Translations under genes and position numbers: made by a program | Shown: one piece after another, positions 3,466-20,000 of the stretch | Layout: each line of letters begins with the position of its first letter | Numbering within the stretch: position 1 is the first letter of the stretch | The notes under the pieces: model-generated | Database searches by the model: none | The model's input: the letters and a program-made list of their open reading frames with translations, nothing else | Told to the model about the DNA's origin: nothing | Virus record (IMG/VR): IMGVR_UViG_3300022861_000081 | Direction: 5' to 3' (one strand) | Length of the DNA: 20,000 bases | DNA from: an uncultured virus (IMG/VR IMGVR_UViG_3300022861_000081) | Taxonomy: Duplodnaviria; Heunggongvirae; Uroviricota; Caudoviricetes

Positions 3466-4747
3466 GTTGCATCTATTCGATGCACTAAAACCGCATTGCT
3501 ACGGTGGAATGTCCACTTCTTCGTCAGACGTATACAGTTGCATCTATCCGATGCACTAAAACTGCGTTGCTACAATAATCTCCCAATGGAGTGGGAACCC
3601 GACTATGTTGCACTTGTCCAGTGCACTAAAACTTCGTTGCTACTGTGCATGTTGACAAAAAAGGCAAACTTAAGTGGTTGCACTTGTCCAGTGCACTAAA
3701 ACTGCGTTGCTACGCCCAATGTCTCCGATGATGCTCTCTGGACGAACGGGTTGCACCTGTCCAGTGCACTAAAACTTCGTTGCTACGAGGTGCCGAGATG
3801 GGCAAAGACAACATTTATGTGGTTGCATCTATCCGATGCACTAAAACTTCGTTGCTGCGTAAAGCCGTGAAATTTACCTCGCATATCTGGATGTTGCACT
3901 TGTCCAGTGCACTAAAACTACGTTGCTACGCCGGGTCCAGCAGGAGCACGTTATCTGTGGGCGGTTGCACTTGTCCAGTGCACTGAAACTACGTTGCTAC
4001 GAGACACCCTGCACTTCATCGCAAAATTCGATGGGTTGCACTTATCCAGTGCACTAAAACTGCGTTGCTACGCGTAGTTTCATTCGAGGAGCGTACATTG
4101 TCATAGTTGCACTTGTCCAGTGCACTGAAACCGCGTTACTACTTCAGCGTGTTGCACTTGTCCAGTGCACTAAAACTGCATTACTGCGTGACAAAGCGTC
4201 AATAAAGCGCCGATTCCGAAGGTTGCACTTGTCCAGTGCACTCAAACTGCGTTGCTACAATGCCCCTCGGCTTGCCGTTTCGACGGCACTGGCGTTGCAC
4301 TTGTCCAGTGCACTAAAACCGCGTTACTACACTATCGGCCAAGAGATAAGGGCGACCCAAGCAAGTTGCACTTGTCCAGCGCACTAAAACCGCATTACTA
4401 CGAATCATTCATAAATTCATAGACTGCGATAAAGCGTTGCACTTGTCCAGTGCACTCAAACTGCGTTACTACTTTTGGACGAGATGGATGCAGCTGTAGG
4501 AGGAAACGTTGCACTTGTCCAGCGCACTTTAACTGCGTTGCTACTTGCTACAGTTCATACACTTGTGCGGAAGATTGGTGTTGCACTTATCCAGTGCACT
4601 TAAACCGCGTTGCTACTTGGTTCCGTATTTTTCAAGTGCGTTGCATCTACTCGATGCACTAAAACCACGTTGCTACCTGCGCTTAAGCTCGTTACAGGCT
4701 CTGAGTTTGTGTTGCATCTGCTCGATGCACTTTGACTACGCTGGTGC
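3466..4747 (-). CRISPR. CRISPR array 1: 19 repeats of 37 nt, 18 spacers
   Basis: + strand consensus GTTGCA(CT/TC)TRTCC(AG/GA)TGCACTAAAACYGCGTTRCTAC; repeats start at 3466, 3537, 3607, 3677, 3750, 3822, 3893, 3964, 4035, 4106, 4151, 4222, 4294, 4365, 4436, 4508, 4580, 4640, 4711; spacers are 33-36 nt except one of 8 nt and one of 23 nt; minus orientation inferred from G-U wobble pattern and promoter. Confidence 0.97.
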
Positions 4748-4767: not shown

Positions 4768-4776
4768 ATTATAGCA
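4768..4776 (-). promoter_or_regulatory. Extended -10 promoter (TGCTATAAT) driving array 1
   Basis: Perfect TGnTATAAT on the minus strand, about 20 nt upstream of the first (5'-degenerate) repeat and downstream of a GGGGCA-TTTT-TGCCCC hairpin that follows the cas stop. Confidence 0.7.
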
Positions 4777-4849: not shown

Positions 4850-7162
4850 TCAAAGATCGTCTGTGCCGCTTTCGTCACCTTCCAGCGACTGCGTGTCTTC
4901 TTCTTCGTCTTCAAATCCCGGCGTCTGTGCGTCTTCTTCAGATTCGTCTTCATTTCCCAGCGCCAGCTTTGCCAGCTTGGGATCGCAGGCAAAGCGCGAC
5001 AGATTTACCGCAGCGTTGTAATCCTGGTCAATCAGCCTTCCACATGCTTCACACTGGAAGCGATCCTTTTCCGTCGATGGATTCAGATGATTGCAATATG
5101 AGCACATGCGCGTTGTGTTCATTGCCTCATACGGCTCAGTCACAATTCCGTATTTCACGGCAGTGTACTTGAGCAGAGAGATGAAGCGGCCAACAGCAGC
5201 AAATTGCCGGTATTTCTGCGAGCGCTTCAAGCTTACGGGATCGGTGTTCTCCTGGTGGACCGCAATTTTGGCCAGAAAGTTCTTTTCCAGGATCAACCGT
5301 GTAATGCTCTTTTTCTTCAGGTAGCTGCAAACATCATGGGCGACTTGCAGCTGGTTGTATTCAATACGCGCGCTGACTTTTTTGCTGTATGCGGCCGCAA
5401 GAGTCCCAATTTGTTCCTCGTTTTTTCCCCACGCATTCAGGATGCTCTGCACATCAACATCGTCTTTGAATTCCTCCTTGAGCCGCAGCAATCCACTACG
5501 ACCGGCTTTCTCCAGCCATGCAGGCGTGTTTTCCCCAAGTTGCTTGCGCAGCGCAATCTTGGCCGTATCTTTGAAGTAGTCACGGCGAGTCTGCAACGCG
5601 GTTCTGATCTCCAACGCGTTGGGGATTCCATCTCCCGGCTTCCAATCAGGGAATAGCCGCGTGATATTGCGTTTTTCCCAGCGTGTGGGTCCCATATCGA
5701 TGCGGAATGGCACACGATCTTTGTGATCTTTGGGCGATTTCTCAAAGTCCATCACAAGCTCGCGCACTGTCCAGCTCGTTGGCTCATACAGTGTGCCAAA
5801 CCGAATTCCCACTTCTGTACGCCGCCAGCCAATATCCAAACCGGCTGCAAGGGCAGTGGAAGTCGGTAGGTCACGTTGCAGCTCAACCACCAAGCAGAGC
5901 CAAAGTTTGCCATCCTGCAATAGAAGTTTCCACTCTTTTACGTGGGAGTTTGAGGGCAACGGTCGCCACTGAATGACCGCAAAACGAAAACGCCATTGCT
6001 GGTTATCGTCTCCACGAATGGAAATCTCCGCTTCTCGAAGCGTTTTGCCACCGCCTACCGTCTGGATTAACTCATGCCCCGTATTGGCAGGATCGAGTGG
6101 CGCTCCAAACGACAATCCCGGTACGCCTTCCTTGGACTCCAGCAATGAGGAACTGACGCCAGCCTTGTTGAAATAGTAATGCAGACCCCAATCGCCGGCC
6201 TTGGGGCTGTCGTTGTACTTGATGAGTGGCCAGCCCTCGGACCAAGTCAGCTTTTTGGTCCTGCGGCGATCGAGTGTTGCCTTGAAGGCGGTGATTGTCG
6301 GCCGAATTTCAAAGCTCCGTAGCTTGAGATCCTTTGCTTCCTTGTTGGCAATCGGTCCAAAATTCTTTACAAACTCGTCGAGCGCGGTGTAGTCCGTCTT
6401 GTGCTGCTGGGCAAAGGTAATCACCTTTTCCAGCAAACCTTCTGGCACGGGACGATCTTTGTCGACGCGCTTCCGCAGATCACCAACAAAATGCCACAAA
6501 CCATCTAGGCCGGGCATCTCGACCTTCAGCTTCGCTGGGTGCTTCATCTTGTCTTTGGAGCGACCGAGCGCGTCGTTAAAAGCATCGATCGCTGGCAAAA
6601 TAACGGTTTGGACAAAATCGGTAATCTCCTCGGGGGAACCAGAAGAGCATTGGCGCCGTGCTTCGCGGCAAAGCCAAGCCAGGCGGTTCCAGAGGTCCCT
6701 TTGTCGCGTGATCGATGCTTTGAGCCACTCAGGTACTTCGCCGCTCGTGTTCGTGCCTTCATGGGTAAAGTACGCACGGTATTTATAGATGGCATTTGAC
6801 CATCCATCTTCTGCCGAAAACTGACGCGGCGTTTTTGACATTCCGCCAATGTGGAAGATGGTCGGCTGCTTTTCGTCTACCAGCAGCACTCCAGATCGTT
6901 TCTGCGGACGCAGTTCGCCGTCAGGTGCCACCAGTTGAAAATTCATTGGTGTATCTGTCTTGAGATGAAGATCTGCGGGAATCGCCACTGCCGGCAACTG
7001 TGCAAACGTTGCCAGGCGCGTGCTCTCGTCAAACACGATGCGGCCATGCGTAAAAGCCTTGGTGGTCTTTAGTGACGTTTCTGCGGCGTGCACAAAGACG
7101 CAATCGTCTTTGTAGGTCAATTCTTTGATCATGCTTTTGATCCTTTCGGTGAACTGTTGCAT
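4850..7162 (-). CDS. cas12: Type V CRISPR effector, Cas12m (V-M / V-U1)-like TnpB-family RuvC protein, 770 aa
   Basis: RuvC-I AAGLDIGWRRTEVG preceded by QWRPLP...KLWLCLVV (resembles the Cas12m HRxLP...LCV...ALxLGWRxTExG block); RuvC-II LILE; Zn finger TTRMCSYC..NP...CEACG; RuvC-III DQDYNAAVNL; adjacent to the array. Confidence 0.85.
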   Translation of the reverse strand: MQQFTERIKSMIKELTYKDDCVFVHAAETSLKTTKAFTHGRIVFDESTRLATFAQLPAVAIPADLHLKTDTPMNFQLVAPDGELRPQKRSGVLLVDEKQPTIFHIGGMSKTPRQFSAEDGWSNAIYKYRAYFTHEGTNTSGEVPEWLKASITRQRDLWNRLAWLCREARRQCSSGSPEEITDFVQTVILPAIDAFNDALGRSKDKMKHPAKLKVEMPGLDGLWHFVGDLRKRVDKDRPVPEGLLEKVITFAQQHKTDYTALDEFVKNFGPIANKEAKDLKLRSFEIRPTITAFKATLDRRRTKKLTWSEGWPLIKYNDSPKAGDWGLHYYFNKAGVSSSLLESKEGVPGLSFGAPLDPANTGHELIQTVGGGKTLREAEISIRGDDNQQWRFRFAVIQWRPLPSNSHVKEWKLLLQDGKLWLCLVVELQRDLPTSTALAAGLDIGWRRTEVGIRFGTLYEPTSWTVRELVMDFEKSPKDHKDRVPFRIDMGPTRWEKRNITRLFPDWKPGDGIPNALEIRTALQTRRDYFKDTAKIALRKQLGENTPAWLEKAGRSGLLRLKEEFKDDVDVQSILNAWGKNEEQIGTLAAAYSKKVSARIEYNQLQVAHDVCSYLKKKSITRLILEKNFLAKIAVHQENTDPVSLKRSQKYRQFAAVGRFISLLKYTAVKYGIVTEPYEAMNTTRMCSYCNHLNPSTEKDRFQCEACGRLIDQDYNAAVNLSRFACDPKLAKLALGNEDESEEDAQTPGFEDEEEDTQSLEGDESGTDDL

Positions 7163-7175
7163 TTACCCAATGCAC

Positions 7176-7358
7176 TCAAACTTCTTCCTCTGCTGCTTTT
7201 TTCAGAGACTCGACATAATGCAGAAAAGCAGCAAGGACAGCGGGTTCTAGGTAAACTTGGTTGGTTTTGCGGATTCCATCCGATGCGTACAACTCGATCT
7301 GGTAGCCGTCAAAAGAAGCGTAAAGCCCATCGCCCAAGTAGACATCGTTTCCCTCCAT
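7176..7358 (-). CDS. Small phage hypothetical protein
   Basis: YLGDGLYASFDGYQIEL...NQVYLEP.VL motif is familiar from phage hypotheticals; ends 13 nt before the cas start, so it is probably co-transcribed; start uncertain. Confidence 0.6.
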   Translation of the reverse strand: MEGNDVYLGDGLYASFDGYQIELYASDGIRKTNQVYLEPAVLAAFLHYVESLKKAAEEEV

Positions 7359-7552: not shown

Positions 7553-7557
7553 TTATC

Positions 7558-7630: not shown

Positions 7631-7657
7631 AGTTGTGCAGCTGCGCCTTGCTTCATA

Positions 7658-7877: not shown

Positions 7878-7897
7878 TTTCTGCCCCACCCAACCGT

Positions 7898-8665
7898 TTA
7901 GGCGTCGAACAGCGGCTTGAACACGTAATCCAACAAGCCAGCGCCAATCTTTTTGTCGCTCACGCTTGTGTCCTGCTCGTTTGCCTTCGAACGAGCTTTG
8001 GTCACAGCGCGATAAAGTGTCTCCACACGATCGAGCAGATCTGCCTTTGTCGACGGCGTGATCAATGCGCTCCACTCCTGCTCAAGAATCGTGCCAATCA
8101 CGGTATCCACATCCATCACCTGTGTCTGCGCAGGATGCTTGTCCGTGGCGTCATAGAGCACCAACGGCTTCTTGTCCTTCCGGGTCCGAAACTTGGTTAC
8201 GTCCCGAGCCTTCCAGTATCCCTTGCCGCGCGATTCATCCGGTTTGAAGCCCTTTGCCGGGTCCAAGGTGGGGATGGATACAATCAGTTCCTTCCACTCG
8301 CCTACGCGCTTTTCAAGCTGAAGAAGAGTCGTTGCCGGTACGTCCTTGGCCAGGATCTCTCCATCCTCTGTCACCACGTCGGCCTTTGCCTGCGTGTTGG
8401 CCGCATCCACTTGGTAGGCGATGTCGACGGCCTTGGCCAGGTGCTTTGAAACCCACTCAATCTGCTGAGCAACCGTGGACTGTACGTCCTGCTGCTCTTC
8501 GATTGCAGAGATTCTTTCAACTTCTTCGTTGGGCGTGAAGCTCTTCATCCGCCCTTCGAACAGATGGCGTTTTTTCTCGAAGGTGGCAATCAGATCCTGA
8601 CGCACCTTCGATGCCTGACCGCTTAAACTTCCATGCACGGCCAGCAGTTCGTGCAGCTTTGACAT
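7898..8665 (-). CDS. Conserved phage/bacterial helical hypothetical protein, 255 aa
   Basis: Clean ORF with GGGAGG SD; motifs VPATTLLQLEK, IPTLDP and LYDATDKHPAQ look like a widespread uncharacterised family. Confidence 0.75.
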   Translation of the reverse strand: MSKLHELLAVHGSLSGQASKVRQDLIATFEKKRHLFEGRMKSFTPNEEVERISAIEEQQDVQSTVAQQIEWVSKHLAKAVDIAYQVDAANTQAKADVVTEDGEILAKDVPATTLLQLEKRVGEWKELIVSIPTLDPAKGFKPDESRGKGYWKARDVTKFRTRKDKKPLVLYDATDKHPAQTQVMDVDTVIGTILEQEWSALITPSTKADLLDRVETLYRAVTKARSKANEQDTSVSDKKIGAGLLDYVFKPLFDA

Positions 8666-8714
8666 GGTCCCCTCCCGACGATGGGAATATACATCACCCT
8701 GGCCATGCGCGCAA

Positions 8715-9257
8715 CTAATTTATCGTGTTTTTCCACCAGTCCGGCAAAAAGTTGACTGCAGCCGCAGGTCGTTCCTCGGTCGGCGCAAATTCAATTTTTC
8801 CTTTTGCGTTTTTCTCGTAAAAGGTCATGAAATTGGCAGGCATGATCTGTGGACCCTTGATGCTCGTGACCAATGCATCAACCCATAGCTCCCGTGGCAA
8901 ATTTGCCACAGTTCCGTCGAATCTTTCTGCAAGAATGCGAATGTATTCCTTTTCGTATTCTTTGAAGGGGATCTTTTCCGCAAGCCCAAAATACTTGGCG
9001 AATTTGCTTCCATTGACTGCCATTGCGTCCGACTGTACCAGAGCTGCCGGCAAATGAATTTCAGAAAATATCTCCCGAGTCATGGTTCTCAAAGCCGCAC
9101 GACCAGCATCGTCAATGCCATTCGTAAGAATCAAATCTCTTTGCGCAGCACATCCATTGTGGTCGTAGGCCCGCACCATAAAAGGAAGGGATTCGCCTTT
9201 GCTGAGTGTTTGAATGCCTTCGTCGTGAACTTTGCGGCAAATCTCGCGCCAATCCAT
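8715..9257 (-). CDS. Hypothetical protein, 180 aa
   Basis: ORF with a -10-like TATATT 6 nt upstream of the ATG. Confidence 0.6.
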   Translation of the reverse strand: MDWREICRKVHDEGIQTLSKGESLPFMVRAYDHNGCAAQRDLILTNGIDDAGRAALRTMTREIFSEIHLPAALVQSDAMAVNGSKFAKYFGLAEKIPFKEYEKEYIRILAERFDGTVANLPRELWVDALVTSIKGPQIMPANFMTFYEKNAKGKIEFAPTEERPAAAVNFLPDWWKNTIN

Positions 9258-9363
9258 GCACGCAATATACGCTCGGGAACTGCCGGAAGTCTACATTCCC
9301 AAGCGTAATAGGGATTGCCATTGCACCCAAAAAGTTATATATTTGTTTTATTGGAGACGCATT

Positions 9364-9621
9364 ATGTACACCACAAATCTGCGCAAAGTCGGCGGATCAA
9401 TCATGCTGGTTGTTCCCCCCGCATTTCTTGAGCAATTAAACATGCAGGTAGGAACTGCAGTAGGCGTGGCTATTGCGGATGGCCGCCTTGTCGTCAAACC
9501 AACGCCGCAGTCACATTACACGCTCAAGAAATTGCTGGCCATGTCCGACTACTCGCGCCCGCAGACAAAGGAAGATCGCGAATGGGTCAACAATCGCGCT
9601 GTGGGTGGCGAACTGCTATGA
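9364..9621 (+). CDS. pemI: AbrB/MazE-family antitoxin (PemI-like)
   Basis: MYTTNLRKVGGSIMLVVPPAFLEQL...GRLVV.P....YTL..LLA..D...EDREW....VGGELL; GGAG SD; TTGCCA-N17-TATATT promoter at 9315-9343. Confidence 0.9.
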   Translation: MYTTNLRKVGGSIMLVVPPAFLEQLNMQVGTAVGVAIADGRLVVKPTPQSHYTLKKLLAMSDYSRPQTKEDREWVNNRAVGGELL

Positions 9622-9944
9622 AGCGTGGAGACATTTATCTGGTTTCGCTCGATCCGACGCTAGGCCGTGAGCAGCAAGGAAGTCGACCAATCGTCATCGT
9701 TTCCGCAACAGAATTCAACCAAGCAACCAAATTGCCCGTAGTCTGTCCGATCACAGGCGGCGGAGATTTCGCGCGTCGCCTTGGATTTGCTGTTCCGATT
9801 TCAGGAATTGAAACAATGGGCATTGTTCGCTGCGATCAGCCCCGTGTGCTTGATCTTAGCGCTCGTAATGCACGCAAGATCGACACTTTGCCAAAGCCCA
9901 TCTTGGAAGAAGTCCTCGCAAAACTTGTTACGATTTTTGAGTGA
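9618..9944 (+). CDS. pemK: PemK/MazF-family endoribonuclease toxin
   Basis: MKRGDIYLVSLDPTLGREQQGSRPIVIVS...FN...PVVCPIT...RCDQPRVLD; ATGA overlap with the antitoxin. Confidence 0.93.
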   Translation: MKRGDIYLVSLDPTLGREQQGSRPIVIVSATEFNQATKLPVVCPITGGGDFARRLGFAVPISGIETMGIVRCDQPRVLDLSARNARKIDTLPKPILEEVLAKLVTIFE

Positions 9945-9998
9945 TTCAAATGACCAAAGATTTCTTAGGCAGTCCAGATTCCGGACTGCCTTTTTGCG

Positions 9999-10487
9999 CT
10001 ACTGGATTTTTTTGGAAGGAACCAGCCGAATGTTTTTCGGCTCGATGGCACGCAGCCTTTCCAGGCTCGCTTCATACCTGGCCAGCTCGGTCCGGTGATA
10101 CTCAACTTGGCGCTCAGAAAACAGAATCTGCTCTCCAACCTGCTCCGCGGTCGGGCAGTTCATCCGCTCCAGCCGGTCCCATTCCTGCTTGGCATGTTCT
10201 TCCTGCATCCTCTGGCGCTCGTTCATGCGCCGCTTGCGCTGCGTTGCGTAATACTCCGGATCGCAAAGTAGACTGGCCGCCTGTTGAATTCCCCGCTCTG
10301 CCGCCGTGCTGAAGGAGTAGGCCACGTCCCGAATCACCGTTTCCGTATATCGGATCAGCCAACTCTTGAATCCCGGATGCTTGTACTGCTCTGGCAGATA
10401 CTCCAGGGCATCTTCTGCCAGCTCGGCGGCAGGCCGAAAATGATTCCGCTTCGATACCACATCAGGGATCGCCTCAGGCACATTCAT
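9999..10487 (-). CDS. Hypothetical coiled-coil protein
   Basis: 162-aa ORF with AAGGA SD, in series with the upstream small ORF. Confidence 0.6.
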   Translation of the reverse strand: MNVPEAIPDVVSKRNHFRPAAELAEDALEYLPEQYKHPGFKSWLIRYTETVIRDVAYSFSTAAERGIQQAASLLCDPEYYATQRKRRMNERQRMQEEHAKQEWDRLERMNCPTAEQVGEQILFSERQVEYHRTELARYEASLERLRAIEPKNIRLVPSKKIQ

Positions 10488-10499
10488 CCGATTTCCTTT

Positions 10500-10673
10500 T
10501 TACTGGTAGAGTCCCAGCTTGGCAAAATCGCGCCGCGCCATCTCTCTGGTTTTTGGGCTAAGGCTGGCCAGCAATTGGCGTCTGTGCTCAGCTTCGGCTT
10601 CCTTCTTCTGGAGCGTCTCTTCCAACATACGCTTTTTCAAATCGGCTTTTTGGGCTTTCTTTTCTTCGTTCAT
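10500..10673 (-). CDS. Small charged hypothetical protein
   Basis: AAGGAGG SD before ATG 10673 (MNEEKKAQK...). Confidence 0.6.
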   Translation of the reverse strand: MNEEKKAQKADLKKRMLEETLQKKEAEAEHRRQLLASLSPKTREMARRDFAKLGLYQ

Positions 10674-10716
10674 TGTGGCCTCCTTGACGTTGTATTCTAA
10701 ACGGGAGGAAATAACG

Positions 10717-11088
10717 ATGGAAGAAATACTGGTCAGATTTTTCATTTCGTACACACGCAACACCTGGCTTACGGGTGAGTACATAAAAGTCTATGTGCGC
10801 AAGGGGTTGCATCTTGGCACAGATCGCAAGATGCATCACTATCTCGATATTGCCAACATTACAGTCGATCCCAGATTCCGTCGACAAGGCTACTTCAAAG
10901 CGTTCCTGGCGCTTTGTCAGGAGATCCAGCCTTATGACGGCATCAAAGTAGAAAACGTTCTGGACGACGATCTGCGCGCGTATCTTCGCCGACTGGCGCT
11001 CAGCGATCCTCGCTGGGCAGAATCCGGAATAGAACTTAGCCCGGATTTTCTATGGGAAAACTTCAAGACAGAGAGATCGGGTTCCTGA
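10717..11088 (+). CDS. GNAT-like acetyltransferase-fold protein
   Basis: LDIANITVDPRFRRQGYFKAFL matches the acetyl-CoA-binding motif A; GGAGG SD before ATG 10717. Confidence 0.65.
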   Translation: MEEILVRFFISYTRNTWLTGEYIKVYVRKGLHLGTDRKMHHYLDIANITVDPRFRRQGYFKAFLALCQEIQPYDGIKVENVLDDDLRAYLRRLALSDPRWAESGIELSPDFLWENFKTERSGS

Positions 11089-11090
11089 AC

Positions 11091-11636
11091 TCATCTTTCT
11101 GTCAGTTCGGCTACGATCATTTCTACCCAAAAAATCGCTTTTTTAACCCTTTTCTGTACGACGCTGATAGGCACATCTTCCAATGCCGCGATCTGCGCAT
11201 TCTTCAGGCCGTTGATGTGTCTAAGAACGAAATATATGCCGTACGGTGGGGGGATGCGATAGAGCACTGTTTCGAGATTCTTCTTTGCCCCCGCAGACAG
11301 CTTTGAACCGCTCCGTTTCACGGCCGCAGCACAAAGCGCCGCTTCATCCTTTTGCGCTTTTTCACACCAGGGGCCGTATTTGCGCCTCAACACGGTTCTT
11401 TCTTTTTCTTCCTGAACTTTCTCTGTTTGATCATGCTGAGACAGCCATGCCAGCACTTCGGCTTCATGCTTTTCGGCCGACAATCCCAATTCGTGAATCT
11501 TGGCAGAATCATTGTTGATCCGAAACAGGTCGTCGTCTACGGAAAGGCCGGTGTCATGATCGAACACCATCTGGGGATGAGCATATTCATGGAATATACC
11601 CTCGACAACCTCAGAAATATCCTCGTCGGTGCTCAT
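11091..11636 (-). CDS. Protein with C-terminal sigma70 region-4 (ECF-type) HTH
   Basis: L.RIPPPY..YFVLRHINGLKNAQIAALEDVPISVVQKRVKKA fits the sigma r4 pattern; no recognisable region 2. Confidence 0.65.
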   Translation of the reverse strand: MSTDEDISEVVEGIFHEYAHPQMVFDHDTGLSVDDDLFRINNDSAKIHELGLSAEKHEAEVLAWLSQHDQTEKVQEEKERTVLRRKYGPWCEKAQKDEAALCAAAVKRSGSKLSAGAKKNLETVLYRIPPPYGIYFVLRHINGLKNAQIAALEDVPISVVQKRVKKAIFWVEMIVAELTER

Positions 11637-11830
11637 ATGTTTTTCGATTTATTCTAGCAAAATCTATCGCAAGACGTTGAAGAAATTGCCGTACGCTTGG
11701 CTAAACCATTTTGGGACAGGCTATTCCCATTTATGAAGGTTCGTTAATAAAAGTGTCTAATGAATTTGAAAAACCGGTCGATAAATTTATAAAATCAGGC
11801 ACATCCTATACCCCAAAGGAATGAAATTCC

Positions 11831-12567: not shown

Positions 12568-12822
12568 TTAAGCGCTGCGTCGTTGCTCTTTCAGGTTGTT
12601 GATGTCCGCTTCGTGCCGCCCAAGAATCATATAGAACTGCGACAAATCGGCCTGCATTCGATCCAAACGGCCATCAATTGCAGTAAAACGGTTGTCCATT
12701 CGGGCATCCGTCGCGGTGAAACGATTGTCGATCGCACCGAACCGCGCATTGTTCAGGAAGATCCCCACCAGGACCAGCAACGAAGGAATACCGATGCTCA
12801 GGGCTAGCTGCAAGTTCGTCAT
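12568..12822 (-). CDS. Small membrane-anchored coiled-coil protein with heptad repeats
   Basis: MTNLQLALSIGIPSLLVLVGIFLN followed by ARFGAID-NRFTATD-ARMD-NRFTAID-GRLD; TATAAT 7 nt before ATG 12822. Confidence 0.7.
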   Translation of the reverse strand: MTNLQLALSIGIPSLLVLVGIFLNNARFGAIDNRFTATDARMDNRFTAIDGRLDRMQADLSQFYMILGRHEADINNLKEQRRSA

Positions 12823-13072
12823 GCCCGCAATTATACCCCGATTCTCTCCACAAGCTGGTGGGTGCATCATAAACAGCATAAAAAATCATTGCCGCCTGTA
12901 AAAAACTTTTTGTATTGAGTTGTCCAGGAAGAAGCAAAACGTGCAACAAATCGAACCATTTTTAATGATGGCGTTAGACGGCGCTGAATCGTGGATTCAT
13001 TCTGAAACACCTGCGGTTCAGGATAAGACACCGAGTGTCCAGAATAGGGCCTGTGGCCTAAAACGTTACAAG

Positions 13073-13151: not shown

Positions 13152-14108
13152 ATGAGTTTGAGCGTACTCAACAACATCAATGCTTCCTACGCCGAGTCCA
13201 ACCTGAACAAAACCAGCAGCAGCCTGTCCACGGTGTTGCAGCAGTTGTCTTCGGGTTCGAAGATCAACTCTGGCGCCGATGATGCCGCCGGCCTCTCACT
13301 GGTCAACGGTCTGCAGGCCAACCAGGAAGCCCTAAGCCAGTCGACCACCAACGCGACCGAGGGCGTGGGTCTTCTGCAGGTCGCCGACGGCGCACTTTCG
13401 CAAGTCACAAGCCTGCTCAACCGTGCTGTTACGCTGGCCACCGAGGTCTCGAACGGCACCCTCAACACCACACAGGACGCGGCGGCCAACGAAGAATATC
13501 AGTCGATTTTGTCGGAAGTTTCGAGCATCGGTTCGACGACCACCTACAACCAACAGCAGGTCTTTGGCAACACTTTTGCCATCTACACCGGCGACTCCAC
13601 CACGCAGGGTTCTTCGGTTGATGTTCTGTCCATCTCCGGGCTCAATGCTACGACAGGAACGGTTGGAGACGCGGGCGGCACACTCACCTACAAGACAGGC
13701 ACGGCTGATTCGACTACGGGTACTTCGATTACTTACGGCACGGCTGCTTCCATCTCCTATACGGCCAATGCCGGTATTTCACTTGGTGCAACCTCGCTTA
13801 GCGGCACAACTACTGCTGATGCACAGAAGGCTGCACAGATTGCTCTGACTAGCTTGAACACAGCCATTTCCGATGTGTCTTCACAGGACGGCTACATTGG
13901 TGCCCAGATCAACACTCTGAATGCCATCAGTACGGTCGAATCCTCGCAGCAGGAGAACATTCAGTCCGCGCAGAATGCCGTGCAGGCCACCGACTACGCG
14001 ACGGCTTCCTCCAACCTGTCCAAGTACGAGATCCTTAGTCAGACCGGCATCTCGGCTCTTTCCCAGGCCAACAGCGTCCAGCAGGAAGTCACCAAGCTGT
14101 TGCAGTAA
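13152..14108 (+). CDS. fliC: Flagellin
   Basis: N-terminal QLSSGSKINSGADDAAGL...NATEGVGLLQVADGALSQVTSLLNR; C-terminal IGAQINTL...ATDYA...LSKYEILSQTGISALSQAN...V.KLLQ; short Thr/Gly-rich variable domain. Confidence 0.97.
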   Translation: MSLSVLNNINASYAESNLNKTSSSLSTVLQQLSSGSKINSGADDAAGLSLVNGLQANQEALSQSTTNATEGVGLLQVADGALSQVTSLLNRAVTLATEVSNGTLNTTQDAAANEEYQSILSEVSSIGSTTTYNQQQVFGNTFAIYTGDSTTQGSSVDVLSISGLNATTGTVGDAGGTLTYKTGTADSTTGTSITYGTAASISYTANAGISLGATSLSGTTTADAQKAAQIALTSLNTAISDVSSQDGYIGAQINTLNAISTVESSQQENIQSAQNAVQATDYATASSNLSKYEILSQTGISALSQANSVQQEVTKLLQ

Positions 14109-14148
14109 TCAGCGGGTTTCATCACTTTGTATCAAAACACTCAGGGAC

Positions 14149-14183
14149 GGCGGCAAAGGAAATCTACTTTGCCGCCTTTTTTT
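14149..14183 (+). terminator. Rho-independent terminator after flagellin
   Basis: GGCGGCAAAG-N8-CTTTGCCGCC followed by T7. Confidence 0.85.
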
Positions 14184-14256
14184 ATTCAAAAGATTTAACT
14201 TTGGGGTCTGTTGGATGGCATTGACCTTGCTTATTCCTTCTTGGAGGAAAGATGAC

Positions 14257-15012
14257 ATGGAAGCATACCAGCAGAGCTATCCGATTCACGTGATAAATCT
14301 TCAACGTTCTGTAGAAAGGAAAAAATCGTTTGTAAAAAACAATCAGCACTTAAAATACAATTTCTTCCCCGCCTTTGATGGGAAAACATTGGGGGCATCA
14401 CTGCTGAACAGCGATAAGCTGTTTCTCCATCCACTTCCCTTCCCCAGTCTTGGTGCCTTTGGTTGTGCGTTGTCGCATTTCACATTGTGGAAATTGGCTA
14501 TGCAGAATAACTTAGCTATCACAATTGCCGAGGATGACGCGATTTTCCGGGATGACTTTGTGACAGCTTCGGCCAATCTGATTGAGTCGCTGCCCAAAGA
14601 CTGGGACATGGTCTATTGGGGATGGAATCTGGATGCGCCCTTGGTTGTTAGCATAATGGGGAATGCTGCGTCTGCCCTCTTGTCCTTTGACCAAAATGCA
14701 ATCGTCAAAAAGATTGACGCGTTTCGGATCTCAAAAGAACCGGCGACAGCACTAAAACTGAGCAAGTGCTTTGGCATACCTGCCTATACGATTTCTCCAC
14801 AAGGGGCAAAAAAGTTTATTGAACAGTGTTTCCCAATTAAAAATACGTATGTCGTATTTCCATTGCTGAACAAATATTTTTCTATGACGGGAGTCGATAT
14901 GGCCATGAATCTTATTCTTTCAGACACACAAAGTTATGTTGCTTTCCCTCCGTTAGTTGTGACCCCGAATGATCACGGTATCAGTACGATCCAACGCCCT
15001 GATTCTTTGTGA
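14257..15012 (+). CDS. Glycosyltransferase family 25
   Basis: IHVINLQRSVERK, FPAFDGK, GAFGCALSH..LW, IAEDDAIF, AYTISPQGAKK; GGAGG SD before ATG 14257 (the longer ORF-track start overlaps fliC and was discarded). Confidence 0.9.
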   Translation: MEAYQQSYPIHVINLQRSVERKKSFVKNNQHLKYNFFPAFDGKTLGASLLNSDKLFLHPLPFPSLGAFGCALSHFTLWKLAMQNNLAITIAEDDAIFRDDFVTASANLIESLPKDWDMVYWGWNLDAPLVVSIMGNAASALLSFDQNAIVKKIDAFRISKEPATALKLSKCFGIPAYTISPQGAKKFIEQCFPIKNTYVVFPLLNKYFSMTGVDMAMNLILSDTQSYVAFPPLVVTPNDHGISTIQRPDSL

Positions 15013-15041
15013 TATTAAAAAATCGCAAGTATCACAAAATT

Positions 15042-15419
15042 TTAGAGGTCCAGCCAGTCAAATTGGCTAGAATTCTCTGCGATTTCGCTTTCGTACTCTA
15101 CAGAAAATTGCGCATCCTCCAAAAACGATGGGATAGCTTCGACGAGTCCTACGGTCTTGGGACATTGCATTCTCCCTACTCGGCCAAATGCTTCGCAGAG
15201 CCAGGGGCGCACTGGATAGATCGCGCAGCGATAGCTCGCTTTGTCCAGGAATCTGCAATCCACCTGACCCCGCTTCTGCGCTGCCAGCCGCTTCCGCTCG
15301 GTCTTGGGCATTGTTTGGACGTAGGCTTTGATCTTTCCCAACCGGTCGCGGGAAAGGGGCACAGGGCCGCAGCAAAGGGCAGTGCAGGAAGAACACGGCA
15401 ATGTATTGGACGTAATCAT
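15042..15419 (-). CDS. YkgJ-family CxxCxxCC cysteine-cluster protein
   Basis: CSSCTALCC...CRFLD....CAIYPVRPWLC..FG....C; start ATG 15419 coupled to the upstream stop (ATGA). Confidence 0.85.
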   Translation of the reverse strand: MITSNTLPCSSCTALCCGPVPLSRDRLGKIKAYVQTMPKTERKRLAAQKRGQVDCRFLDKASYRCAIYPVRPWLCEAFGRVGRMQCPKTVGLVEAIPSFLEDAQFSVEYESEIAENSSQFDWLDL

Positions 15420-15931
15420 CGCGGCACCAGCAGTGGCTTCGGTATCCACTCTGTACCAAACATCTTTTTCAACTCGGCCAGTGCCGCCTTCCGTCGCCGG
15501 CCGCGCTCCCCATCGGAGGTAATGTCTGTGGCATAAAAAAATACGACATAAACCACCTGCGCCAAGGCCGTCGGAACATCCGTCCATTGATACGGTGGCG
15601 CAAAAAGAACAGCCACCAATATCACGCCAAAAACTCCCTGCAGAATAATCCGATTCACAGCCTCGAAGCGACTTCTTTGCGTGTATTTTCTGACGGCGGC
15701 AGGACGCTTGTGCAACATCCACATCAAGGTGCCAAGGGAAAGCGCACATATGATCTTGACCAGGACCAAGCTCAGCGTCCATTTCGCAGGGGGCAACGTC
15801 AAAACCAGATAGAGCGCGATCATGCCGCGCTCGGCGTATTTTTGGCTGATCGAAAGCCATTCGTCGAGCCACTTGAGCAGCCCTTCGACACGGTGGAAGA
15901 ACCAAGCGTCATAATCGATCAACCATTTCAT
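15416..15931 (-). CDS. Multi-pass membrane hypothetical protein
   Basis: About 4 hydrophobic segments; start ATG 15931 lies 7 nt after TATAAT and avoids the tRNA-Ala overlap. Confidence 0.65.
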   Translation of the reverse strand: MKWLIDYDAWFFHRVEGLLKWLDEWLSISQKYAERGMIALYLVLTLPPAKWTLSLVLVKIICALSLGTLMWMLHKRPAAVRKYTQRSRFEAVNRIILQGVFGVILVAVLFAPPYQWTDVPTALAQVVYVVFFYATDITSDGERGRRRKAALAELKKMFGTEWIPKPLLVPR

Positions 15932-15961
15932 GCGCGTAATTATACCGTAAGAAATATGGTC

Positions 15962-16038
15962 TGGTGGAGCTGGGGAGGATCGAACTCCCGACCTCCTGCT
16001 TGCAAAGCAGGCGCTCATCCCAACTGAGCTACAGCCCC
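15962..16038 (-). tRNA. tRNA-Ala(TGC)
   Basis: GGGGCTG.../CAGCTCC A CCA with G3:U70; CCTGC TTTGCAA GCAGG. Confidence 0.96.
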
Positions 16039-16241
16039 ACTTCTTCTGTCAGCGGATTGCGGCGTTCATCCTTCACCCGCTGCGTCTGAATATCGTAATA
16101 CTTTTCCATGCAACACACACTGCATCGATCTGTCAGGTTCCACTTGCGGAACCGGCCGACAAAGTTATTCGGCGATGGATAAAGCGATGCGCGCCACCGT
16201 GCAACCTTCTCCGTCCGATACCGTCGTTCTGCCCGATTCAT
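16029..16241 (-). CDS. Small hypothetical protein
   Basis: ATGA-coupled to the upstream ORF; CSVCC motif; stop lies inside tRNA-Ala. Confidence 0.5.
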   Translation of the reverse strand: MNRAERRYRTEKVARWRASLYPSPNNFVGRFRKWNLTDRCSVCCMEKYYDIQTQRVKDERRNPLTEEVGL

Positions 16242-16522
16242 CGCGTCTCCTGTGTCTTTTGCAAGAGTCCCAGTTCTTTGGTCCAGAAGACCTGGCCAGT
16301 ATTGCTGCTGTAGATCGTCTTCGGATCGATGCCGGCTTTGGTCACCAGCTCGTTGAAGTCTTTTTTGGACATCGTGACGACTTCTTCATACCCGCAGTGA
16401 TCTAGGCATTCATGGTTTTTCTGCAAGTCTTCCAGAGAAGGGTAAATTGTGTTTCCATCTGACGCTTCTCCCAACTCGCAGGAAAAATCGATCGCGCACA
16501 TCCAACCAGGTACGGCTCTCAT
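16238..16522 (-). CDS. Hypothetical protein
   Basis: AGGAG SD before ATG 16522; GWMCAIDFSCELGEA.DGN.IYPS.EDL...H.C...CG..EV is phage-like. Confidence 0.65.
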   Translation of the reverse strand: MRAVPGWMCAIDFSCELGEASDGNTIYPSLEDLQKNHECLDHCGYEEVVTMSKKDFNELVTKAGIDPKTIYSSNTGQVFWTKELGLLQKTQETR

Positions 16523-16537
16523 CGCGTCTCCTACATT

Positions 16538-16612
16538 TGGGGTGCAGGGCGGGGTTTGAACCCGCGTAGACCAGTGCCACAGACTGGCGCCTAACCACTC
16601 GGCCACCCGCAC
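16538..16612 (-). tRNA. tRNA-His(GTG)
   Basis: GTGCGGG/CCTGCAC, C73, CCA; CCAGT CTGTGGC ACTGG; position -1 is A, not G. Confidence 0.92.
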
Positions 16613-16627
16613 TCAAACTCTTGAACC

Positions 16628-16810
16628 TTACTTTTCCCAAGGATACATTTTGCTGGAATCGAATTTCAATGCTTCCAGCTCAACCAAAAAGTCTTCAGCA
16701 GATTGCCATCCGTTTTCACGGCGGATTCCGCGCATCTTTTTTCGAAGCTTTTCGTTTTGCTGGGCGATAAAATGGGTCAAATCCGCCTCGGTTACAATCT
16801 TCTCCGGCAT
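16628..16810 (-). CDS. Small hypothetical protein
   Basis: 60-aa ORF with GGGGG SD-like run, upstream of tRNA-His. Confidence 0.45.
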   Translation of the reverse strand: MPEKIVTEADLTHFIAQQNEKLRKKMRGIRRENGWQSAEDFLVELEALKFDSSKMYPWEK

Positions 16811-17093
16811 CAAAACCCCCAAAAGGTCCCCCGGCGTGTTTCATGAAAGAGGACTGAAGGGCCATGTCCAGTCGCTTCGTCAGAGGCTCTCCCCCTGCAC
16901 CATAGCACCGGGAACTTGTCGAGCGGCGGCGAGACCTCATCGATGGGGCTACTCCGTCTCGCTTGCAAACTGCCTGACCAAGGCTTCTCTGACCGGTACT
17001 GCACAGCTCCCGAAAGCGCCGTGCCTCTTGACGAGATACTTCCCGATCTCCCCTTGGAGGACCCCAAGCCGCTCGATCTTGTAAACTTCATAA

Positions 17094-17169
17094 TCGCGGG
17101 GGCAGGATTCGAACCTGCGATCTCTGGATTATGACCCCAGCGAACACAACCGGACTGTTCCGCCCCGCG
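17094..17169 (-). tRNA. tRNA-Met(CAT), initiator-like body, no encoded CCA
   Basis: CGCGGGG/CCCCGCG-A; CTGGG GTCATAA TCCAG; GCAGG TTCGAAT CCTGC; TGCTATAAT at 17175-17183 just upstream. Confidence 0.88.
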
Positions 17170-17187
17170 CGGAAATTATAGCACAGC

Positions 17188-17397
17188 CTAAAGATGACCT
17201 GACTCAAAAGATTCTTCGATCTGGCGCGCGGTCTTGCGCAAAATCTCGGGCATTTTTATCGCGAGTTCAAAAGGTGCTTGCACAGAAAACCCAGTTCCCT
17301 TTTCGCCATCAAAAATGGCTAGGAACACGCCTTCTGCTTTTGTCTCCTCGCGAACCTTCGTGCAGCTCGCATCATACTTTCCAAGTCCCAGCGACAT
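17188..17397 (-). CDS. Hypothetical protein
   Basis: GAGGAG SD before ATG 17397 (MSLGLGKYD.SCT.VRE.T.AEGV...G..G.GFSVQ); the longer ORF-track start falls inside the CRISPR array. Confidence 0.65.
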   Translation of the reverse strand: MSLGLGKYDASCTKVREETKAEGVFLAIFDGEKGTGFSVQAPFELAIKMPEILRKTARQIEESFESGHL

Positions 17398-17435
17398 CCA
17401 GTCTTCTCCTCGGTACTGATTGTTTCGTCCTCGGT

Positions 17436-17887
17436 GTTGCATTTCTTCAATGCACTTCAACTTCGGTGGAACAAACAAAAGAGAATGCTTATCAAGGTTG
17501 CATCTATGCGACGCACTTCAACTGCTTTGCTACGTATCGTATTTAAAAGAAAAATCCCCTTGTCCATAGTTGCATCTATCCGATGCACTTCAACTGCGAG
17601 CTACTTGGGTCCAGCGTAAAAAGCACTGACATTGTTCAGTTGCATTTGTTCAATGCACTTTGACTGCTTTGCCGTAAAACGAGGCAAATATTCAATGGCT
17701 GTATGGTTGCATCTGCTCGATGCACTTCAACTGCCTTGCTACTCCAAAAGCTGGCATTATGAATCTGAGTGTTCTGTTGCATCTGCTCGATGCACTTCAA
17801 CTGCCTTACAGCGAATAGTTTAACCGATTTAGCGCAATATTGCTATTCAAGTTGCATCTATTCAATGCACTTCGACTGTGATAATTT
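17436..17887 (-). CRISPR. CRISPR array 2: 7 degenerate repeats of the same family, 6 spacers
   Basis: Repeats GTTGCATYT....RATGCACTTYRACTGC.TTGCTAC start at 17436, 17497, 17569, 17639, 17706, 17776, 17851; period 61-75 nt. Confidence 0.92.
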
Positions 17888-17888
17888 T

Positions 17889-17976
17889 TGGCGGAAGCGG
17901 TAGGATTTGAACCCACGAAGCCTTTCGGCCTAGCGGTTTTCTGGACCGCCGGCATAAACCACTCGCCCACGCTTCC
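17889..17976 (-). tRNA. tRNA-Ser(AGA) with C33
   Basis: GGAAGCG/CGCTTCC G CCA; long variable arm AGGCC GAAA GGCTT; anticodon arm GCGGT CCAGAAA ACCGC. Confidence 0.88.
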
Positions 17977-18133
17977 GCACGGTTGTCAGATGCCAACCAT
18001 TGCCATAAAGGCACTTGTAAGACGCCATGAGCACCGGCATCCTCTGGGCTGCGTAATCCGCATCGTCGCGGTCTGCGTAGCTCAACTTGCCGCACAGCTT
18101 GCATTTCTTGGTTTCCACAATCCAGCAAGACAA
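17930..18133 (-). CDS. Small Cys/His phage protein
   Basis: CxxCGK.SY...A.........YKC....GWHLT pattern; 3' end overlaps tRNA-Ser(AGA). Confidence 0.5.
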   Translation of the reverse strand: MSCWIVETKKCKLCGKLSYADRDDADYAAQRMPVLMASYKCLYGNGWHLTTVRKRGRVVYAGGPENR

Positions 18134-18148
18134 TGCCGCCTCCCAACT

Positions 18149-18237
18149 TGGCGGAGAGAGTGGGTGCTGACCCCACGTGGCTCTTCCGAGACCATCGCAT
18201 TAGCAGTGCGACCCTTTTACCGTTCAGGCATCTCTCC
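18149..18237 (-). tRNA. tRNA-Ser(GCT), atypical T-loop
   Basis: GGAGAGA/TCTCTCC G CCA; TCGCA CTGCTAA TGCGA; long variable arm; T-loop GTCAGCA. Confidence 0.85.
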
Positions 18238-18435
18238 CGCTGTGATATCCCAGGCCAGATCCTCACCAAGAGCTTGCCAGGCTTTGATCTGCACAATCTG
18301 AATAGCTCCACGCCGTTTTATTTCATCACGTGCATCCCTGGAAGTTTTGAAGTCGCGCATGATCGCGATACCGCGGTGAACTAGGAAAAAGCGAAGCGGA
18401 ACCAGTCCATGTTCTGCATCCCAGTGCTGAATCAT
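18217..18435 (-). CDS. Small hypothetical protein
   Basis: GGGAG SD; stop lies inside tRNA-Ser(GCT). Confidence 0.4.
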   Translation of the reverse strand: MIQHWDAEHGLVPLRFFLVHRGIAIMRDFKTSRDARDEIKRRGAIQIVQIKAWQALGEDLAWDITAGEMPER

Positions 18436-18453
18436 TCTGTCTCCCGTTTACAA

Positions 18454-18480
18454 TGCCTTCAGCCACTCGGCCAACTCTCC
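18454..18480 (-). pseudogene. 5' fragment of a tRNA-Ser-like gene
   Basis: GGAGAGTTGGCCGAGTGGCTGAAGGCA is an acceptor 5' strand plus D-arm; no anticodon or T-arm follows. Confidence 0.6.
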
Positions 18481-18484
18481 ATTT

Positions 18485-18560
18485 TGGTGCGGGCGAAGGG
18501 ATTCGAACCCTTAAAAAACCAATCCTAAGTCGGCTGCGTCTGCCATTCCGCCACGCCCGC
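18485..18560 (-). tRNA. tRNA-Leu(TAG) with a short variable loop
   Basis: GCGGGCG/CGCCCGC A CCA; GCCGA CTTAGGA TTGGT; variable loop only TTTTT. Confidence 0.9.
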
Positions 18561-18567
18561 TTCCAAC

Positions 18568-18595
18568 AAAAACCCCCGCCAGCTTCGGCGAGGGT
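18568..18595 (-). terminator. Rho-independent terminator-like hairpin
   Basis: ACCCTCGCC-GAAGCT-GGCGGGGGT followed by a T run. Confidence 0.55.
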
Positions 18596-18688
18596 AAGGG
18601 CCCGATGATCGCGCTTTGCTCAGGCGCACCCTACCGATCGCTTAGCAGGGACGACGAACTGGGCGTTAACCGCGGCATGGAAGTCACG

Positions 18689-19063
18689 TTACTCTGGTTC
18701 CGGATAGCCGTCAAGGATAAAAATGCGGCGGCTATCGCCAGCAAGCGACTCTGTATCCTGCTGCCAAGCGCGCAACTGTTCTTCGCTCATCGCACGGATT
18801 TTTCGGTCGACATACTCTGCCATTTGGCCTTCATTGCTGTGCGGCAACGCCATCAAATCTGGGAGGGGTGCAAGGTATCGCGAAAACAGCATCAGCTGCT
18901 CCAGATTGATATGGCAGAATCCGTGTTCCATGTGGTCGAGCACGGTCACACTCACACCAATCTTCTTTGCGAGTTCTTCTGGCGGCATCTTCTTCGCTTT
19001 TCGTCGATTCGCGATATGCCTGCCTACCAACTCCGTGAAATGCCCTACGATCGGTTTTGCCAT
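18689..19063 (-). CDS. XRE-family HTH transcriptional regulator
   Basis: VGRHIANRRKAKKMPPEELAKKIGVSVTVLDHMEHG...INLEQL; AAGGAG SD. Confidence 0.8.
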   Translation of the reverse strand: MAKPIVGHFTELVGRHIANRRKAKKMPPEELAKKIGVSVTVLDHMEHGFCHINLEQLMLFSRYLAPLPDLMALPHSNEGQMAEYVDRKIRAMSEEQLRAWQQDTESLAGDSRRIFILDGYPEPE

Positions 19064-19078
19064 CGTTCTCCTTGGTAT

Positions 19079-19300
19079 TTACTCCTGCGCAGATGCAGGT
19101 AAAGGAATTTCGAGATTAGTAGCCAAGCGACTTTCAAGCCACAACTTTCTTGAAATTTTCAGCGAAGCCACAGCTTCTACTTCGGTTTCCCCATCAGCGA
19201 TGCAACCGCGCAGCTCGGGATTCTTCGCAATCCAAGCTTCGCCATCCCACTCCAGTTCGATGCGGTAGTGCATTTTCAGGTACTGCTCAAGATCTGGCAC
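19079..19300 (-). CDS. hicB: HicB-like antitoxin domain protein (short form)
   Basis: YRIEL.....WIA..PELRGCIADGET..EAV..L......WLE.......IPLP; probable GTG start at 19300 with AGGAG SD. Confidence 0.85.
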   Translation of the reverse strand: MPDLEQYLKMHYRIELEWDGEAWIAKNPELRGCIADGETEVEAVASLKISRKLWLESRLATNLEIPLPASAQE

Positions 19301-19358
19301 GTGACTCCTTTTTTTATTTTTAATTGCGTGCGTTGCGTTCAAATGCGATTATCCTAAC

Positions 19359-20000
19359 ATGGATTTTCAATGGTTGCGCGCCGATTTGAAGTTGCCCAGT
19401 CTACTGGATGACAACAACCTTCTCAATCTGCTGGATGCCAAAGCCTACGATGCCATTTCTCCCGACGCTTTGCGCCTCTGGTGCAATCGCTATGCCCGCT
19501 ACGGCCTTCCCACCATCGAGCTGATTGAGTGGCTGCGGAAGCGGATTGCCGACCGCGATGCAATCGAGATTGGCTCGGGCACCGGTGACTTGGCGCATCA
19601 CCTTGGCATTCCCGCCACAGACAACCGGATGCAGGAGTGGCCAGAGATCAAGTTCAATTACGAAATGATGGGCCAACCGGTTATCAAGTATCCGGATTTT
19701 GTCCAGAAACTAGATGCCCTCGATGCAGTAAAGCAGTACAAGCCGGATATTGTCATTGCCTCCTGGGTCACACACTGGATCGATCCAAACCTGCCGCCGC
19801 CACCAGAAGGCGGCAATGCCTGGGGCATCAAGGAAGACGAGATCCTGGCCACCGGCTGCACCTATATTTTGATCGGCAACGAACGAGTGCATGGCATCAA
19901 AAAGATCATGGCCCAGCCGCACGAGGAGTTTGAACTTCCCTTCCTGCGCAGCCGAGCCATTCACCCAGAACTCAACCGGGTATGGATCTGGAACGAATAA
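19359..20000 (+). CDS. SAM-dependent methyltransferase-like protein
   Basis: IEIGSGTGDLA SAM-binding motif I; LDALDAV..Y.PDIVIASW; YILIG. Confidence 0.65.
   Translation: MDFQWLRADLKLPSLLDDNNLLNLLDAKAYDAISPDALRLWCNRYARYGLPTIELIEWLRKRIADRDAIEIGSGTGDLAHHLGIPATDNRMQEWPEIKFNYEMMGQPVIKYPDFVQKLDALDAVKQYKPDIVIASWVTHWIDPNLPPPPEGGNAWGIKEDEILATGCTYILIGNERVHGIKKIMAQPHEEFELPFLRSRAIHPELNRVWIWNE

Follow-up and report, generated by a model that had tools for sequence, protein, structure and literature searches.

A CRISPR array directly behind a tRNA-Ser(AGA) gene in a phage with a Cas12m-like effector

A CRISPR array on the minus strand of an uncultured virus (array 2) begins directly behind the encoded CCA of a tRNA-Ser(AGA) gene of the same strand. 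We refer to the whole stretch analysed, 20,000 nucleotides of IMG/VR record IMGVR_UViG_3300022861_000081, as the window. The adjacency had been noticed from the sequence in a first-pass annotation and is confirmed here. The CRISPR system is an ordinary one, and its arrangement is unusual and strain-specific. We consider it fairly probable that array 2 is an auxiliary array serving the one Cas12m-like (type V-M-like) effector of the phage, read through from a cluster of tRNA and small genes and matured by effector-linked processing, with the join to the tRNA arising at the level of the strain. The features of the two array loci are as follows.

18572..18595, minus strand: terminator-like hairpin and T run, just upstream of tRNA-Leu (terminator scan)
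18485..18560, minus strand: tRNA-Leu(TAG), first gene of the cluster (ARAGORN; Rfam)
18149..18237, minus strand: tRNA-Ser(GCT) (ARAGORN; Rfam)
17930..18133, minus strand: small upstream ORF, CxxC zinc-ribbon-like, overlapping the tRNA-Ser(AGA) gene at its 3′ end (ORF; weak PHROG 9124 match)
17889..17976, minus strand: tRNA-Ser(AGA), 88 nt, CCA encoded (ARAGORN; Rfam tRNA, 47.2 bits; 88/88 positions identical in the nearest virus record, G001, and in three metagenome contigs)
17879..17888, minus strand: A/U-rich linker of 10 nt, RNA strand AAAAUUAUCA (sequence, repeat alignment and BLAST breakpoints against G001)
17851..17878, minus strand: truncated first repeat of array 2, repeat-like in its 3′ 28 nt only, hairpin included (repeat alignment)
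17436..17887, minus strand: array 2, seven repeats (37-nt frame) and six spacers of 24–38 nt, 36% G+C (repeat matches)
17188..17397, minus strand: small ORF of 69 aa, no family, open in both lineages
17094..17169, minus strand: tRNA-Met, next gene of the same-strand cluster (ARAGORN; Rfam)
7156..7192, minus strand: solitary repeat within the effector gene's 5′ UTR (repeat matches)
4850..7162, minus strand: Cas12m-like effector, longest ORF 770 aa, probable start ATG 7132 (residue 11) (Pfam, profile and Foldseek)
4768..4776, minus strand: extended −10-like TGCTATAAT, 20 nt ahead of array 1's first repeat (sequence read by eye)
3466..4747, minus strand: array 1, 19 repeats, 3′ of the effector gene (repeat matches)

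The window is phage-like. Its Pfam matches include RecT, a PD-(D/E)XK nuclease, an HNH endonuclease, a sigma-70 region-4 protein, DUF7873 and a HicB-like/HTH pair, and additionally a flagellin and a family-25 glycosyltransferase. The flagellin (N- and C-terminal domains) and the glycosyltransferase lie in a plus-strand cassette (13152–15012), which G001, near-identical in other respects, lacks. ARAGORN predicts eight tRNA genes in the window, all on the minus strand. Directly after tRNA-Leu, the minus strand at 18455–18481 resembles the 5′ half (acceptor and D-arm) of a class II tRNA, and the 72-aa ORF that follows this element overlaps tRNA-Ser(GCT) with its end. A further tRNA-like element lies beside tRNA-Thr (7676–7753, minus strand), in which the order of T-arm, acceptor-like stem and D-arm is permuted; its match to YrlA (Y RNA-like) is weak, at 19.5 bits, far under the gathering score of 69.

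The last base of the encoded CCA lies at 17889, and the tRNA-Ser(AGA) gene exceeds the gathering score of the Rfam tRNA model (47.2 versus 29 bits) in a local search; it is missing from the Rfam gathering scan of the whole window. Counted in the 37-nt frame, array 2 opens with a repeat at 17887..17851, which begins 1 nt past the CCA, as had been reported. The description of this repeat as 5′-degenerate also stands and can be refined: its first nine positions are unlike the repeat in the alignment, hence the join is effectively a linker of 10 non-repeat bases in all, which separates the CCA from the conserved part of the repeat, followed by a 28-nt core. The predicted order in the RNA is thus CCA, A/U-rich linker of 10 nt, truncated repeat of 28 nt. 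Against the sister lineage, the breakpoint falls after 17888 (BLAST against G001). The 10 nt between the CCA and the repeat core leave no space for a promoter-bearing leader; array 2 is a genuine CRISPR array, on the same strand as the tRNA and, as originally claimed, leaderless. The join exists in DNA sequenced independently. A single unbroken contig of DNA run X5, whose study differs from those of the possible source samples, covers 17778–18600 at a word depth of about 760, and 17 DNA runs, from peat or permafrost, contain at least 0.80 of the region's sampled words. An MFE fold of the tRNA with the first units pairs the D-arm region with spacer 1, which we consider a prediction artefact (DNA similarity 11/18).

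The repeat core AGTGCRYYGNNNARRTGCAAC has 27 matches in the window, all on the minus strand (0.37 expected by chance): seven at 17436–17887, 19 at 3466–4747 and one at 7156–7192. Repeats are 37 nt long, with the consensus GTAGCAACGCAGTTTnAGTGCACTGGACAAGTGCAAC. Those of array 2 (17887–17851, 17812–17776, 17742–17706, 17675–17639, 17605–17569, 17533–17497 and 17472–17436) start 61–75 nt apart, and the six spacers are each different. The 3′ part of the repeat, which adjoins the spacer, contains a 6-bp hairpin. Its pairing is kept in 162 of 162 cells over the 27 repeats (42/42 in array 2 alone), and two of the six pairs switch together between C-G/U-A and U-A/C-G, giving compensatory changes in 22 cells. 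The 5′ halves are variable in five of the seven array-2 repeats. Because the hairpin stands beside the spacer, array 1 lies 3′ of the effector gene and TATAAT precedes two arrays, we read the arrays along the minus strand.

Array 2 had been credited with a repeat sub-variant of its own, and this did not hold. On the plus strand, CTTCAACTGC occurs in four of its seven repeats, and the TTGAAG form, GTTGAAGTGC, is also found in five repeats of two other arrays of G001 (arrays 3 and 4); the sub-variant is therefore not specific to array 2. Inside every array, the hairpin is immediately preceded by variable bases (TTTT, TTTC, TTGA, TCAA and others). Repeats within one array are unusually heterogeneous in this lineage, with two hairpin classes tied by compensatory changes and many loop variants (3466–4747; loci L031–L033), and array 1 includes one 8-nt and one 23-nt 'spacer'.

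Repeats also lie close to gene starts. Between the solitary repeat and the effector's probable start (ATG 7132) there are 23 nt, and the first ATG of the longest ORF falls inside the repeat hairpin. After the last repeats of array 2 (17436–17472) and of G001 array 3 (L032; G001 36693–36729), the next ATG is about 31–39 nt on, with a Shine-Dalgarno sequence before it. Effector binding at such repeats could cut or regulate the downstream mRNA. Among 22 loci of relatives with one to three pattern matches, only that of G001 precedes a Cas12 homologue. In type V-A systems, standalone repeats are described upstream of cas12a in about a third of loci (bioRxiv 10.1101/2023.03.03.530964), and nothing nearer to the solitary repeat is known to us.

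Array 2 lies 10.3 kb from the effector gene (7162..4850); the first-pass annotation had given 10 kb. The family consensus begins at residue 11 of the longest ORF. The RuvC residues D443, E626 and D714 form a canonical D/E/D triad, and the only Pfam match is a Cas12f1-like TNB domain. A 31-member profile searched against the PDB gives 23vw_A as its best hit (E 1.1e-23) and also finds Cas12m2 (8hio, E 3.8e-12); Cas12j and Cas-lambda are absent among hits at E 0.01 or better. With an AlphaFold model of the effector (mean pLDDT 84.1), Foldseek ranks 1–4 are all Cas12m (E 2.6e-21 to 7.6e-18; target-normalized TM-score 0.54–0.60). Profile and predicted fold together place the effector nearest to Cas12m among the Cas12 subtypes. 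Like Cas12m2 (PDB 8hhl/8hio) and Cas12m (PDB 8pm4 and 23vw), it appears as a single TnpB-derived protein with RuvC and zinc-ribbon (TNB) domains. As in type V-M, the repeat hairpin adjoins the spacer, and we noticed no tracrRNA-like anti-repeat. Its sequence identity to the solved Cas12m chains is 13–15%. At 760–770 aa (family members are mostly 711–797 aa), the effector is outside the compact Cas12m size of about 600 aa, known Cas12m proteins having about 580–615 aa versus 770 aa here. In a 31-sequence alignment of the family, the RuvC-I position is D in 20 members, H in six, E in four and R in one, and the second position is E in 26 and Q in five. This variation recalls the Cas12m clades of a published study (PMC10442227). 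Type V-M is marked by DNA binding without cleavage and, in some clades, by a non-canonical RuvC triad; the effector here has the canonical triad.

The effector family comprises 112 clusters, none with an informative name, two of which are labelled as Terracidiphilus MAGs. Its seven genome loci lie in six Acidobacteriaceae or Acidobacteria MAGs and one unclassified bacterial MAG, so that the host is probably an acidobacterium; the phage is probably temperate and infects Acidobacteriaceae. G001, a record of 55 kb estimated to be 64% complete, carries exactly one effector homologue (100% identical) and one TNB-domain protein. As the Cas12m-like protein is the only effector found in that record, the earlier suggestion that array 2 acts in trans with the distant Cas12 is supported by gene content, and any function of the array would have to be in trans. 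No Cas1 was found in five of five related virus records, all incomplete. In comparison with known type V-M, the system here is phage-borne and has at least four arrays in the sister genome G001.

Comparison with sister phages reveals how the join may have arisen. G001 is 99.8% identical to the window over 1–11691, 95.6% over 15040–17535 and 100% over 17888–18218, and lacks 17536–17887. Behind the identical tRNA-Ser(AGA), G001 has a TATAAT box about 40 nt on, then a gene for a 619-aa thiamine-pyrophosphate (TPP) enzyme, a 58-nt gap, three repeats, of which the last two are common to the window, and the small ORF. The TPP-enzyme gene is full-length, with N, M and C domains (L031 399–2258, G001), and stands where the window has extra repeats. 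Metagenome contigs scanned with the last 26 bases of the tRNA gave 48 loci; the identical 88-nt tRNA occurs in three, all with the G001 arrangement. The window-type join is therefore seen in none of the four records with an identical tRNA-Ser(AGA) (G001 and the three contigs), which all have the TPP-enzyme gene, TATAAT and three repeats. Nor does an array start behind a same-strand tRNA in any of 74 loci with the repeat core in viral contigs; these loci overlap in part and come from 37 contigs, and arrays at locus or contig ends could not be judged. The shortest tRNA–array distances among them are 365 nt (a solitary repeat after tRNA-Thr) and 979 nt. The search for tRNA-anchored arrays in relatives, which the first-pass annotation had proposed, thus returned none among the four identical-tRNA records and the 74 array loci. 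G002–G006 show mostly repeat-level matches in synteny comparisons, with no comparable tRNA–array region seen; short non-repeat matches (query 1517–2689) occur in G006 and G004 only.

The difference between the two types is that of a cassette: the window has five repeat–spacer units where the sisters have a promoter-like box, the TPP-enzyme gene and one unit. Judged from these alignments, the direct abutment is most likely a strain-level cassette replacement bounded by the 3′ end of the tRNA and by repeat 6. Because the join is absent in relatives and spacers 1–5 of array 2 are unmatched elsewhere in the fetched DNA, we regard the window type as an established strain-level variant that arose by cassette swap. 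The unusual arrangement of the array is probably accidental.

The other arrays of the lineage provide a background for this interpretation. G001 has four arrays and the solitary repeat. Its array 1 is preceded by a strong hairpin after the effector stop codon and then by TGCTATAAT, 20 nt before the first repeat; in array 4, the distance from TATAAT to the first repeat is 8 nt; and array 3 begins 30 nt past the stop codon of the preceding gene, its last repeat being followed by an ATG about 31 nt on. First repeats are 5′-degenerate in arrays 1 and 2 of the window, in G001 array 3 and in the solitary repeat, with or without a tRNA, and the 5′ part is kept in G001 array 4 and largely in the G001-type array 2. 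With TATAAT at 8–20 nt and arrays embedded among genes, classical leaders are generally absent in the lineage, and the arrays behave as passengers of operons.

A scan with consensus sigma-70, which may not be that of the host, found neither a promoter-like nor a terminator-like site on the minus strand from 18572 to 16873. The sigma-70 scan of 15800–19400 yielded one site, unrelated to array 2, and the promoter scan found none for the tRNA cluster. A promoter-like motif of the lineage, TATAATTGCGCGCATGAC, occurs four times on the minus strand (7475–7492, 8702–8719, 12818–12835 and 15927–15944), each time ahead of a minus-strand ORF, and is absent from the array-2 stretch (18572–16873). Given the same-strand cluster of tRNAs and small ORFs and the lack of a promoter of its own, array 2 is most likely transcribed by read-through. 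In the 69-aa ORF behind it, the Shine-Dalgarno sequence GAGGAG starts 24 nt, and the ATG 39 nt, past the last repeat. This ORF differs from that of the sister type by seven non-synonymous and three synonymous codons; ten codon differences are too few to judge selection, and the ORF's need for upstream transcription is therefore a weak argument. Against read-through from the cluster, a terminator-like hairpin precedes tRNA-Leu, and the scan did not find a cluster promoter. A promoter may instead lie within the tRNA or the array, as host promoter rules may differ from those of a sigma-70 scan.

Metatranscriptomes bear on the sister type. Three runs contain 10–13% of the region's words, with contigs that match the sister type or other arrays; no RNA contig in these runs crosses the window-type join, and they are uninformative on expression of the window type. 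In RNA run X18, one sister-type contig joins tRNA-Ser(AGA) to its own downstream flank, and a second starts in the small ORF, crosses the last two repeats and continues into sequence of the G001 type. These contigs were seen as the first 30 letters per loose end, and DNA in the RNA library is a possible source; they give a weak hint of transcription reading through the tRNA and through the array.

Our favoured model is that a polycistronic transcript would carry tRNA-Leu, the 72-aa ORF, tRNA-Ser(GCT), the zinc-ribbon ORF, tRNA-Ser(AGA), array 2, the 69-aa ORF and tRNA-Met. Bacterial tRNAs with an encoded CCA are cut by RNase P at the 5′ end and endonucleolytically in the A/U-rich trailer, followed by exonucleolytic trimming. 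Here, such maturation (RNase P at the 5′ end, an endonuclease and exonuclease trimming in the linker) would only detach the tRNA from the array that follows it. The effector would bind the conserved 3′ hairpin of each repeat, the precursor would be cleaved 5′ of the repeat scaffold, following the pattern of other Cas12m systems, and the resulting guides would be loaded into the effector. Cas12m2, the nearest relative to have been characterised, when co-expressed with its array in a cell-free system yields processed crRNAs, cut upstream of the repeat scaffold by a mechanism left unresolved there, and the crRNA retains the whole 36-nt repeat (PMC10442227). If the same applied here, the first guide of array 2, with its truncated scaffold, may be inactive.

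The spacers of array 2 have 36% G+C, versus about 48–50% in the spacers of other arrays (Mann–Whitney P 0.0006) and 51% in the window. Spacers 1–5 are unmatched in the fetched loci, among them the full 55 kb of G001, and spacer 6 agrees with the sister type in 22 of 24 positions. Spacers 2, 4 and 5, searched as exact 24-mers, have no match in viral contigs, and the whole array has none in GenBank phages or in five Acidobacteriaceae MAGs. Searched against 301 genomes of the Acidobacteriaceae family, it gives nine weak hits (E 0.001–0.01 per genome), about chance level. The same search with an array-1 spacer recovered nothing beyond that spacer's copy in G001; because it too lacks a target, the missing targets of array 2 are uninformative. 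The A+T-rich spacers of irregular length (24–38 nt) fit either a distinct class of targets (for example, promoter regions for a DNA-binding effector) or decay.

The more striking reading put forward by the first-pass annotation is that of an evolved natural tRNA–guide fusion, the array being the trailer of the tRNA from which host tRNA-processing enzymes release a separately regulated guide set. The truncated repeat 10 nt past the CCA, on the same strand and with no space for a promoter, the abundance of the join in the independent run X5, the 17 DNA runs with at least 0.80 of the region's words, and a spacer composition unlike that of other arrays speak for such a fusion. Nevertheless, as an evolved design it seems very unlikely. 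The join is not conserved: a gene and TATAAT intervene in four of four records with the identical tRNA, and none of the 74 array loci has it. Most first repeats are 5′-degenerate whatever their neighbours, that of G001 array 4 being the exception, and the repeat sub-variant is common to other arrays. An encoded CCA is an anti-determinant for RNase Z, and tRNA-Ser(AGA) encodes its CCA. As a single tRNA flanks array 2, the inner guides would still need effector-linked processing. By analogy with Cas12m2, which yields processed crRNAs with its own array (PMC10442227), release by tRNA processing would not be needed.

Another reading is that array 2 is transcribed independently of the tRNA, from a promoter at the join or in an A+T-rich spacer. 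By eye, TTCAAA in the T-arm and AATTAT in the linker resemble −35 and −10 boxes (4/6 each), the other arrays of the lineage have TATAAT 8–20 nt before the first repeat, and the array-2 spacers are A+T-rich; yet the spacing of 19 nt between these boxes exceeds the 16–18 nt range, the scan reported no site there and the lineage motif TATAATTGCGCGCATGAC is absent, which together render this origin distinctly improbable. It is also unlikely that array 2 is a remnant in decay, with guides that have ceased to be of use. Its full hairpin pairing in seven of seven repeats, with compensatory variants, argues against decay, as does the fact that the window-type array is longer than that of the sister, which retains three repeats only, a number that would itself suit erosion. 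Variable 5′ halves in five of seven repeats, spacers of 24–38 nt with 36% G+C and the lack of targets speak for a remnant; the last of these applies equally to the array-1 spacer, found only as its own copy in G001. A slim chance is given to a more elaborate proposal, that the phage deliberately rides the tRNA-cluster transcript for a second guide set, which would make it nature's equivalent of the engineered tRNA–crRNA arrays. Leaderless arrays and solitary repeats would then be placed in operons, and effector binding at terminal repeats in 5′ untranslated regions would couple guide production to cutting and translational control downstream. The repeats concerned would be those before the effector's own gene, the small ORF after array 2 and the gene after G001 array 3.

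Engineered arrays are among the nearer parallels to this locus. In the portions of the literature consulted, we found no natural tRNA–guide array, only engineered ones, namely polycistronic tRNA–crRNA and 'drive-and-process' arrays (PMC9120480; bioRxiv 10.1101/046417; PMC8956186). They share with the present locus a tRNA directly 5′ of a Cas12-type repeat–spacer array on one strand, and the effector's own processing would free the guides in both. The engineered arrays are eukaryotic designs, with the tRNA providing a Pol III promoter or RNase P/Z cut sites. A Thermus Cas12r preprint and a Pyrobaculum paper mention tRNAs in other contexts. Unlike the engineered arrays, the locus here has a bacterial-type tRNA gene with an encoded CCA, single and at the 5′ end, and its join is not conserved.

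Huge phages, as described by Al-Shayeb et al. in 2020 and 2022, reportedly encode CRISPR arrays or mini-arrays without adaptation genes. The phage here resembles them in having compact phage-borne arrays, several per one small type V effector, and no Cas1 was found in its related records. It differs in the effector family, in probably being temperate and on Acidobacteriaceae, and in its unusually heterogeneous repeats.

Should array 2 prove to derive from the tRNA transcript, the tRNA–crRNA polycistrons of genome editing would have a precedent in nature, and a self-processing type V system would be seen to be able to draw guides from any transcript, with no leader. The analysis documents a peat phage lineage, probably of Acidobacteriaceae, whose Cas12m-like effector is enlarged, in which no adaptation genes were found and whose several arrays are heterogeneous and embedded in operons; the position and content of the arrays differ between strains that are 95–99.8% identical elsewhere.
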